A stretch of DNA of 10,021 nucleotides from a virus. Positions 2,342 to 2,731 of the stretch are shown piece by piece; the first letter of the stretch is position 1, and every line of letters begins with the position of its first letter. Where the stretch lies: the UHGV virus genome UHGV-1546747. One strand, given 5' to 3'. A program made the translations under genes and the position numbers. The notes below the pieces were generated by a model. That model saw only the letters and a list, made by a program, of their open reading frames with translations, made no database searches and was not told where the DNA came from.

Positions 2342-2372
2342 TTGATGACCGACAGGGTGGCATTGTTAGAAT
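2342..2372 (+). promoter_or_regulatory. Candidate sigma70 promoter with extended -10 (TTGATG ... TGtTAGAAT) upstream of the TonB-CTD lipoprotein gene
   Basis: -35-like TTGATG at 2342-2347 and TGnTAGAAT at 2364-2372, roughly 25-30 nt upstream of the ATG at 2399. Spacer is 19 nt, longer than optimal. Sequence-only prediction. Confidence 0.25.
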
Positions 2373-2398
2373 AAGACTTATTCTTATCTGTGCCGGGA

Positions 2399-2731
2399 AT
2401 GAAAATGAAAAGAAATCTTCCGTTAATTATTTTGTTGTCTTCTCTGGTTATGGGCTGTACGCAACATAAAACAGATATGCCCCGACAGTTGGTTAAGGCA
2501 TTACCACAATATCCGGCCTATGCAGCGGCAAATTATATAAAGGGACGGGTTGATGTGAAGTTTGATATTGGTGCTGATGGTACTGTCACCCGAATTGAGT
2601 TTATCCGTTCAGAGCCGCACCATTTGTTTGATGAGCAGGTTGTAAAGGCGATGGCAAAATGGCGATTTGAGAAGGACAGGCCGTGTAAAGGCGTGAAGAA
2701 AACGTTTATCTTTAGTCCTTCTGCACCCTGA
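2399..2731 (+). CDS. Lipoprotein consisting of a signal peptide plus a TonB C-terminal domain (TonB_C-like), phage moron
   Basis: MKMKRNLPLIILLSSLVMGC: basic N-terminus, hydrophobic core, lipobox VMGC with Thr at +2. The remainder, PQYPAYAAANYIKGRVDVKFDIGADGTVTRIEFIRSEPHHLFDEQVVKAMAKWRFEKDRPCKG, aligns motif-for-motif with the E. coli TonB C-terminal domain as I recall it ([61 protein letters not shown]). No N-terminal TM anchor or Pro-rich spacer of a true TonB. Start could be ATG 2399 or 2405 (GGGA SD at 2394-2397); ORF-track start 2390 is GTG. Local sequence is visibly AT-richer than flanking phage genes. Confidence 0.8.
   Translation: MKMKRNLPLIILLSSLVMGCTQHKTDMPRQLVKALPQYPAYAAANYIKGRVDVKFDIGADGTVTRIEFIRSEPHHLFDEQVVKAMAKWRFEKDRPCKGVKKTFIFSPSAP

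Follow-up and report, generated by a model that had tools for sequence, protein, structure and literature searches.

The stretch of DNA analysed here (UHGV virus genome UHGV-1546747, 10,021 nucleotides, in the following termed the window) represents the late region of a lambdoid Escherichia coli prophage of the Shiga toxin 1a (Stx1a)-converting/JLK-2012 type, as judged from gene calls and profile searches. Between its lysis and packaging genes it carries a gene for a small protein in which a lipoprotein signal is joined to a TonB C-terminal domain (CTD). Over positions 2300-2800, which include this gene, Stx1a-converting phages and phage Lys8385Vzw match the window at 100% identity, and phage JLK-2012 does so at 99.8%. 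Of 5426 complete E. coli genomes, 417 contain the same segment, every time on the chromosome, where the gene is annotated as a 'TonB family protein'. The similarity to TonB was thus already known to annotators, who also used the names 'TonB C-terminal domain protein' and 'TonB fragment'. The features of the locus are collected in Table 1.

Table 1. Features of the window, with the TonB-CTD lipoprotein gene and its upstream region listed before the neighbouring genes
Feature	Position	Strand	Remarks
Coding sequence of the 108-residue TonB-CTD lipoprotein	2405-2731	+	stop codon TGA at 2729-2731; RefSeq WP_000828068.1, 'TonB family protein'
Lipoprotein signal peptide, residues 1-17	2405-2455	+	followed by C
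Lipobox VMGC	2447-2458	+	read from sequence
Cys18, predicted lipidated first residue of the mature protein	2456-2458	+	Thr at +2; read from sequence
Seven-residue tether TQHKTDM	2459-2479	+	low model confidence
TonB C-terminal domain, residues 26-108	2480-2728	+	equivalent of E. coli TonB 153-235
Weak Shine-Dalgarno-like GGGAA	2395-2399	+	5 nt before ATG 2405; read from sequence; GGAAT kept in phage 21
Weak Fur-box-like 19-mer AATAAGACTTATTCTTATC	2370-2388		13/19; overlaps the palindrome
Operator-like 8-1-8 palindrome AGAATAAG-A-CTTATTCT	2368-2384		overlaps the -10
Candidate sigma-70 promoter	2345-2372	+	-35 ATGACC (2345-2350), 16-nt spacer, extended -10 TGtTAGAAT (2364-2372)
Conserved non-coding element of ~140 bp after Rz	2076-2215	+	upstream edge of the slot; context, not part of the gene
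Antirepressor Ant (KilAC domain)	422-1117		profile search
i-Spanin Rz	1355-1813		profile search
Rz1, embedded in Rz	1566-1751		profile search
Short Rha-like remnant	1819-2061		gene call
YlcI/YnfO (DUF3950) gene	2863-3063	-	
HNH endonuclease	3105-3470		
Small terminase	3761-4324		
Large terminase	4321-5982		
Protease/major-capsid fusion	6046-7983		
Portal	8195-9559		

Three in-frame start codons are possible, GTG at 2390, ATG at 2399 and ATG at 2405. The last of these is the conserved one. In phage 21 the triplet corresponding to 2399 is ATA, and the ATG of 2405 is retained together with the preceding GGAAT. Translation from this codon yields a protein of 108 residues beginning with MKRNLPL, and the start chosen in RefSeq gives the same length.

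The N-terminus of the protein has the hallmarks of a lipoprotein. Residues 1 to 17 (MKRNLPLIILLSSLVMG) combine an n-region containing K/R with a hydrophobic core, and lead via the lipobox to Cys18. In E. coli an Asp at position +2 of a lipoprotein causes Lol avoidance. With a Thr at +2 (T19) the mature lipoprotein is predicted to be sorted to the outer membrane by the Lol system. Thus we infer from the amino acid sequence that this phage-borne TonB-CTD protein is lipidated and transported to the outer membrane. Seven residues separate Cys18 from the first residue of the domain, which is the equivalent of P153 of E. coli TonB.

The remainder of the protein was assigned to the TonB CTD by several searches. 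Pfam TonB_C (PF03544) matched with 54.8 bits at a cut-off of 24.6 (E=1.3e-14) and TIGR01352 with 54.5 bits at a cut-off of 27.1. The NCBIfam equivalogs of full-length TonB scored 49-74 bits versus cut-offs of 265-448 and aligned only at model positions ~152-240. A phmmer search of the PDB aligned residues 28-106 (in a 110-residue numbering) without gaps to residues 153-231 of E. coli TonB (E~1e-16). A structure was then predicted with AlphaFold2 (AF2) from an alignment of 14 family members. The model showed the order beta-alpha-beta-beta-alpha-beta with a mean predicted local distance difference test score (pLDDT) >95 across most of the domain (~residues 31-100). The pLDDT was low in the tether and high from about residue 25 onwards. 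The best Foldseek matches of the model were the E. coli TonB CTD alone (1u07) and its complexes with BtuB (2gsk_B) and FhuA (2grx_C), with root-mean-square deviations (rmsd) of 1.1-1.4 A and target TM-scores of 0.88-0.91. For the BtuB- and FhuA-bound forms the rmsd was 1.1-1.2 A. FusB and HasB, specialised TonB paralogs whose TonB-type CTD is adapted to particular partners, were also among the structural matches. Yet, these paralogs keep the inner-membrane anchor and transduce energy, which the phage protein cannot do.

The phage protein therefore shares with the CTD of E. coli TonB (~150-239; 1U07, 2GSK, 2GRX) the alpha-beta-beta-alpha-beta fold, the YP motif and the aromatic core, and it covers the entire TonB-box-binding domain. 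At 36-39% sequence identity, Y163 and P164 (the YP motif), F180, F202, W213 and F230 are retained, and a Phe takes the place of Y215. On the other hand, the phage protein stops at the equivalent of residue 235, i.e. residues 236-239 forming the short beta4 of TonB are missing, and it would be lipid-anchored to the opposite membrane. The N-terminal transmembrane helix and the Pro-rich spacer of TonB were looked for in the 108-residue protein and both are absent. We concluded that the protein belongs to the TonB_C family without being a TonB. The initial annotation, made from the DNA alone, had described a lipoprotein signal peptide with the lipobox VMGC and Thr at +2 fused to a TonB CTD that lacks the transmembrane anchor and the Pro-rich spacer, and had named profile search and structure prediction as checks. 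The profile scores, the PDB matches and the AF2 model all bear out this description.

The distribution of this architecture was explored in a family search that covered 1.8 billion representative proteins as well as scans of genomes and viral contigs. Two lineages occur in E. coli, the one of the window and the one of phage 21, with 72% protein identity. Between these two copies the rates of nonsynonymous and synonymous substitution (dN and dS) were 0.18 and 1.46, resulting in a dN/dS of 0.12 overall and of 0.10 inside the domain. Other lineages with 33-50% identity were found in Klebsiella, Raoultella, Serratia, Pantoea, Erwinia and uncultivated prophages. They follow a common plan of signal peptide, lipobox, a tether of ~7-14 residues and the TonB_C domain with a total length of ~105-135 residues. 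Nearly all of the family members that were inspected have a lipobox, and its Cys is invariant in the family alignment. At +2 the members carry S, T, A or V, but in no case Asp, from which sorting to the outer membrane is predicted for the whole family by the Lol-avoidance rule of E. coli. Taken together, the substitution pattern and the conserved plan indicate a functional gene under purifying selection. It is not a recent capture of a host tonB, because the identity to the CTD of E. coli TonB is as low as stated above. A TonB_C-only architecture of another kind was encountered in secreted proteins of 300-1300 residues from other bacteria (P0034, P0036, P0043 and similar ones), which carry 3-5 tandem TonB_C domains without a TonB-type anchor and are likewise uncharacterised.

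The location of the gene is that of a moron. It starts ~590 nt past Rz and is flanked by Rz/Rz1 (1355-1813) on one side and by YlcI, HNH and terminase genes (2863-5982) on the other. At 43.4%, the GC content of its coding sequence is below that of its surroundings: the window as a whole has 54.1%, Rz and HNH have 55%, and the genes for packaging and head reach 57%. The YlcI/YnfO gene, whose function is unknown, is the other gene of the low-GC stretch between Rz and HNH; it adjoins the lipoprotein gene in JLK-2012 and in the RM8385 prophage, too. A conserved non-coding element (2076-2215) marks the upstream edge of the slot. Sequences with 83-97% identity to it occur in 398 phage records, among them Stx1 and Stx2 phages, phage 21 and ev017, with or without the gene, which is present in 15. 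In the comparison of the window with phage 21 the element is better conserved than the neighbouring coding sequence. In VT2-Sakai it follows directly after Rz and is itself followed by the terminase genes; there it carries the annotation 'Rz-like spanin'. A homology breakpoint at ~2076-2080 was seen in three independent comparisons, with JLK-2012, with the RM8385 prophage and with phage 21. An Rfam search of positions 1750-3150 gave no match, and RNA folding of the element was no better than that of shuffled sequences on either strand (z = -1.2 and -0.35). Because of the latter result we consider the element probably a recombination boundary of a late-region moron slot, and not a structured RNA. 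An intrinsic terminator was not found downstream of the lipoprotein gene.

The presence or absence of the gene in otherwise related phages and its deviant base composition are therefore those expected of a moron, here in a slot after the lysis genes. This agrees with what had been read from the window at first, i.e. a moron in an AT-richer island between lysis and packaging genes. The order was the same in all of the phage and prophage loci that were inspected (11/11), with the gene directly downstream of the lysis cassette, in the same orientation and upstream of the packaging genes. These loci represent diverged lineages with differing types of lysis and terminase genes. In the E. coli type strain ATCC 11775 the order is Q, porin, holin, lysozyme, Rz, iss (on the opposite strand), the TonB-CTD gene and terminase. 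In phage 21, where the gene is annotated as 'TonB C-terminal domain protein', it lies directly past bor. The lineage of the phage 21 type thus has two lipoprotein morons clustered between Rz and the packaging genes (L051, phage 21, 3227-4327; L054, ATCC 11775, 4227-5327). Bor of lambda and Iss resemble the TonB-CTD protein in being outer-membrane lipoproteins encoded by morons of this slot, but their fold and their function, serum resistance, are unrelated. Moreover, bor lies on the opposite strand, whereas the TonB-CTD gene is co-oriented with the late genes.

Copies of the gene are frequent in E. coli and sporadic elsewhere. With a search of lower stringency than that for the window segment, a copy was detected in 1616 of the 5426 complete E. 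coli genomes (~30%), at 1786 places of which all but one are chromosomal. The carriers include Shiga-toxin strains, ST131, an O25:H4 isolate and ATCC 11775. The 15 sequenced phages with the gene include phage 21, ev017, Perceval, three PhiR phages and one Klebsiella phage, and relatives are encoded on at least 220 IMG/VR stretches. By contrast, a scan of species-representative genomes with a 6-sequence alignment revealed lipoprotein-type copies in only ~20 genomes, none of which represents the major species of its genus. Some copies lie outside recognisable prophages, in Serratia grimesii between a ycgN-like gene and dsbB, and in Raoultella and Klebsiella near lacZ/lacI. No neighbours common to the phage proteins of the window and the loci outside E. 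coli were detected by tblastn, and no transporter gene adjoins the TonB-CTD gene in any locus examined.

The upstream region was inspected for signals of transcription. The candidate sigma-70 promoter of the window matches the consensus at 9 of 12 positions and has a TG motif, but a scan with this consensus found 3 sites where 2.2 were expected. The match alone is thus not above chance. Yet, its extended -10 (TGTTAGAAT) is kept in phage 21 as TGTCAGAAT, while the surrounding upstream sequence has diverged, and a relative (L087) has the motif TGTTAGtAT ahead of a perfect Fur box. The candidate promoter named in the initial annotation is thus present, with an extended -10 that phage 21 retains. 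A strong sigma-70-like site, TTCACA-16-TATAAT with 11 of 12 matches, is located inside the lipoprotein coding sequence on the opposite strand (2532-2559, -). It could be an antisense promoter, or such a sequence may have arisen by chance because the DNA is rich in AT.

A link that the initial annotation did not contain is that to the iron-dependent repressor Fur. Upstream regions were scored against the 7-1-7 core TGATAATnATTATCA (14 positions) and the 19-mer GATAATGATAATCATTATC, and p values were obtained from 2000 dinucleotide shuffles per region. The core was matched at 14/14 positions in the Raoultella/Klebsiella copies L004 and L005 and in the viral-contig lineages L081, L085, L087, L091 and L093. 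The 19-mer was matched at 17/19 positions in Serratia grimesii (L011), and at 16/19 in the Serratia prophages L016 and L095-L101 and in Erwinia (L018). Strong Fur boxes were thus present in most lineages outside E. coli, 15-65 nt 5' of the start codon, in prophage copies as well as in copies outside recognisable prophages; in at least 7 lineages p was <=0.001. Because of these boxes upstream of its relatives, we consider it very probable that iron controls the expression of the family in general, as it does for tonB and the genes of TonB-dependent receptors. For the allele of the window the data are only suggestive of such a regulation. An operator-like 8-1-8 palindrome overlaps the -10 and in turn is overlapped by the Fur-box-like 19-mer, which lies ~16 nt before the start codon, the same distance as the perfect 7-1-7 boxes of L004, L005, L081 and L087.

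What could a TonB CTD do at the outer membrane? In the crystal complexes of TonB with FhuA and BtuB the receptor's TonB box lies at the periplasmic face of the barrel, where it pairs as an additional beta-strand with beta3 of the TonB CTD (PMC11658791; PMC9249621), and TonB-dependent colicins have TonB boxes of their own (PMC11658791). The short tether of the phage protein would keep a complete TonB CTD on the periplasmic side of the outer membrane within a few nm of the inner leaflet, i.e. where TonB boxes are located. There the domain might bind the TonB boxes of TonB-dependent transporters by beta-strand addition as TonB does, and possibly those of incoming TonB-dependent colicins as well. 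Because a link to ExbB/ExbD in the inner membrane is missing, it could not deliver energy and would compete with TonB as a dominant negative of natural origin, thereby uncoupling the receptors. For the lysogen the benefit would be that fewer TonB-dependent phages, colicins and microcins gain entry. The Fur control seen in relatives would result in co-induction with the TonB-dependent receptors under iron limitation, matching the level of the protein to that of its targets. We put forward this TonB-decoy mechanism with protection of the lysogen as a tentative reading of sequence, model and analogy, one that we hold possible but would not yet call probable.

There are precedents for the idea. 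Howard et al. reportedly found in 2001 that C-terminal fragments of TonB expressed in the periplasm inhibit FhuA- and FecA-dependent transport as well as the action of colicin M and phi80. Such fragments resemble the phage protein in presenting a TonB CTD in the periplasm that is uncoupled from ExbB/ExbD. They differ in being soluble and overexpressed, whereas the phage protein is natural, diverged, predicted to be lipid-anchored on a 7-residue tether, and belongs to a family with Fur boxes in most lineages. Llp of T5 and Cor of phi80, N15 and the mEp phages are small phage-encoded outer-membrane lipoproteins, too, and would have the same outcome if the decoy idea is right. Both are FhuA-specific and act allosterically, whereas a binder of TonB boxes could act on many receptors. 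The phage protein had no match to a Cor or Llp family in Pfam and PHROG; its fold is that of the TonB CTD instead. Llp has been shown to bind the periplasmic face of FhuA, itself a TonB-dependent transporter, and to block phage entry (preprint 10.64898/2026.03.26.714494).

The TonB-CTD protein would thus be a phage outer-membrane lipoprotein aimed at TonB-dependent receptors and built from a captured host-type domain. A literature search retrieved no paper characterising a phage or prophage TonB-CTD lipoprotein or a decoy of this kind, in agreement with the initial annotation, whose author knew of none. PADLOC defence models gave a match at chance level only (E=0.023), and the BFVD viral structure library none at E<=0.001.

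The length of the tether (7-14 residues in the family), the Fur boxes in most relatives and the sporadic, prophage-rich distribution make the decoy idea plausible; such a distribution is as expected of an accessory or defensive gene. Extended to the whole family the idea would imply a broad shield. Prophages of ~30% of E. coli genomes, and non-prophage sites in other Enterobacterales, would cap TonB boxes at the time when iron starvation derepresses the receptors, thereby protecting from TonB-dependent phages, colicins and microcins. This wider version we advance with more reserve, as a conjecture somewhat less likely than the mechanism itself.

Several observations weigh against the decoy. 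Of the 9 positions of beta3, the strand with which TonB boxes pair, only 1 is identical to TonB (VKKTFIFSP compared to IVVNILFKI in TonB), and the family has a specific conserved Lys on beta3 at the position of TonB V226; these differences could mean a different binding partner. R166 of TonB is replaced by Tyr and Q160 by Leu. The latter residue (residue 33 of the 108-residue protein, 2501-2503) equals the substitution of Q160L, a classical suppressor allele of TonB that restores function with mutant TonB boxes (PMC11658791). We draw no conclusion from this coincidence because the position is variable in the family (L, Y, Q and others). Regulation is a second weak point. In the lineage of the window the Fur-like site is marginal (13/19 to the 19-mer, p~0.05), and the upstream region of the phage 21 lineage contains no recognisable Fur box. 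Furthermore, the host would pay a price for an antagonist of TonB that is induced under iron starvation, and the relatives outside recognisable prophages may argue for a role in host physiology. The co-orientation with the late operon and the constant place after the lysis genes would be compatible with a late or lytic role. Finally, exclusion of the carrier phages themselves by way of TonB is unlikely because their J tail tips are of the lambda type, so that exclusion would have to target other phages. Among the C-termini of these J proteins, and between them and lambda J, the identity is ~50-70%, a similarity from which the receptor cannot be read.

An alternative is a positive or modulatory factor of iron uptake. 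A Fur-induced TonB domain tethered to the outer membrane could help or tune TonB-dependent transporters. It might hold the TonB boxes of unloaded receptors and so spare scarce TonB for loaded ones, or it might contact peptidoglycan or outer-membrane proteins and organise the transporters. An uptake component would be expected to be induced when iron is scarce, and the strong Fur boxes extend to the copies of Serratia grimesii, Raoultella and Klebsiella outside recognisable prophages. The family-specific conserved residues that differ from TonB fit as well. Yet, a domain without a link to the proton-motive force cannot energise transport. Nor does the sporadic and often prophage-borne occurrence, with ~20 genomes in the species-representative scan, resemble that of a core uptake component, and an adjoining transporter gene is missing throughout the loci. 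We therefore regard a positive or modulatory role as rather unlikely.

The same phenotype as that of a decoy would arise if the target was TonB itself. In this case the tethered domain would form heterodimers with the CTD of host TonB and hold TonB at the outer membrane. TonB is far scarcer than its receptors, and less protein would be needed for titration. The aromatic core residues are kept in the phage protein. TonB CTDs dimerise in crystals, as in the 1u07 dimer or in the intertwined dimers of shorter fragments, and TonB dimerisation in vivo was reported by Sauter, Howard and Braun in 2003 according to the listing of that work in PMC9249621. However, the short beta4 of the 1u07 dimer, formed by TonB residues 236-239, is just what the phage protein lacks. 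Sequestration of TonB thus appears quite unlikely to us.

A role in lysis is suggested by the PHROG database. The best match of the protein there is phrog_1267, 'Rz-like spanin' (E=6e-43), which would imply a spanin-like accessory that is made from the late transcript and acts on the envelope at lysis. The position directly downstream of the lysis cassette and the common orientation in every phage lineage inspected would be in line with this. On the other hand, the window already has a complete Rz/Rz1 pair, and its Rz1 matches phrog_1267 only at profile positions 4-48, the end with signal peptide and lipobox. The mature part of the TonB-CTD protein is a globular domain and not the short Pro-rich domain of an o-spanin. 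In addition, bor of lambda and iss share the slot and are expressed in the lysogen, and neither copies outside prophages nor Fur boxes fit a lysis function. The label of PHROG 1267 is probably an annotation artefact of signal-peptide similarity. We rejected an identity as o-spanin on anatomical grounds, i.e. the separate Rz/Rz1 genes, the distance of the gene from Rz and the globular mature domain, and consider a late or lysis role in general to be very improbable.

That the gene is a dead tonB fragment picked up by a phage, as older annotations like 'partial tonB-like membrane protein' and 'TonB fragment' suggest, can hardly be reconciled with a dN/dS of 0.12 (0.10 in the domain) at a dS of 1.46, with a lipoprotein signal that precisely takes the place of the TonB anchor and is kept in lineages of 33-50% identity, with the distance from E. 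coli TonB, or with intact copies in ~30% of complete E. coli genomes. The initial annotation had named a fragment of a host tonB paralog as the finding that would speak against it; the low dN/dS together with the conserved architecture ruled out a pseudogene or fragment.

If the decoy mechanism is correct, the protein would be the first natural inhibitor of the coupling step between TonB and its receptors and not of a single receptor. It would then affect the susceptibility of lysogens to TonB-dependent phages, with a bearing on cocktails for phage therapy, and to colicins, microcins and conjugates of siderophores and antibiotics ('Trojan horses' of the cefiderocol type). Iron physiology would be affected as well and possibly the expression of Stx1, which is under control of Fur. 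As a speculative corollary for Stx1 phages, less iron uptake would relieve repression by Fur and lead to more Stx1. For the study of TonB the protein would provide a naturally evolved probe of TonB-box recognition. Even with another mechanism, a family that consists of a TonB CTD only and is linked to Fur is an unexplored component of the envelope machinery for iron uptake. What commends the protein to further study is the wide spread of its gene, the new link to Fur and a specific hypothesis within reach of standard assays.

Some features of the neighbourhood were noted in passing. The antirepressor gene lies inside the lysis cassette 5' of Rz, and both the RM8385 prophage and VT2-Sakai have the same Ant gene between the lysozyme gene and Rz. 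Downstream of Rz, positions 1804-2079 of the window (276 bp) take the place of 759 bp with a full gene for a Rha-family regulator in the RM8385 prophage, which is otherwise 99% identical. The open reading frame at this site matches the middle of phrog_2571 only and looks like a deletion remnant. At the far end of the window a gene that begins at 9556 overlaps the stop codon of the portal gene. It contains direct repeats at 9720-10021 with a period of 162 nt (54 residues) and 85% identity (IPVPRDGRDYDPEVLQKAVNDAVANIPQP...), which extend beyond the window. At the 3' end of the small terminase gene, a 27-nt tandem repeat (4204-4257) in 2 copies with 85% match codes for a Lys/Ala-rich repeat.

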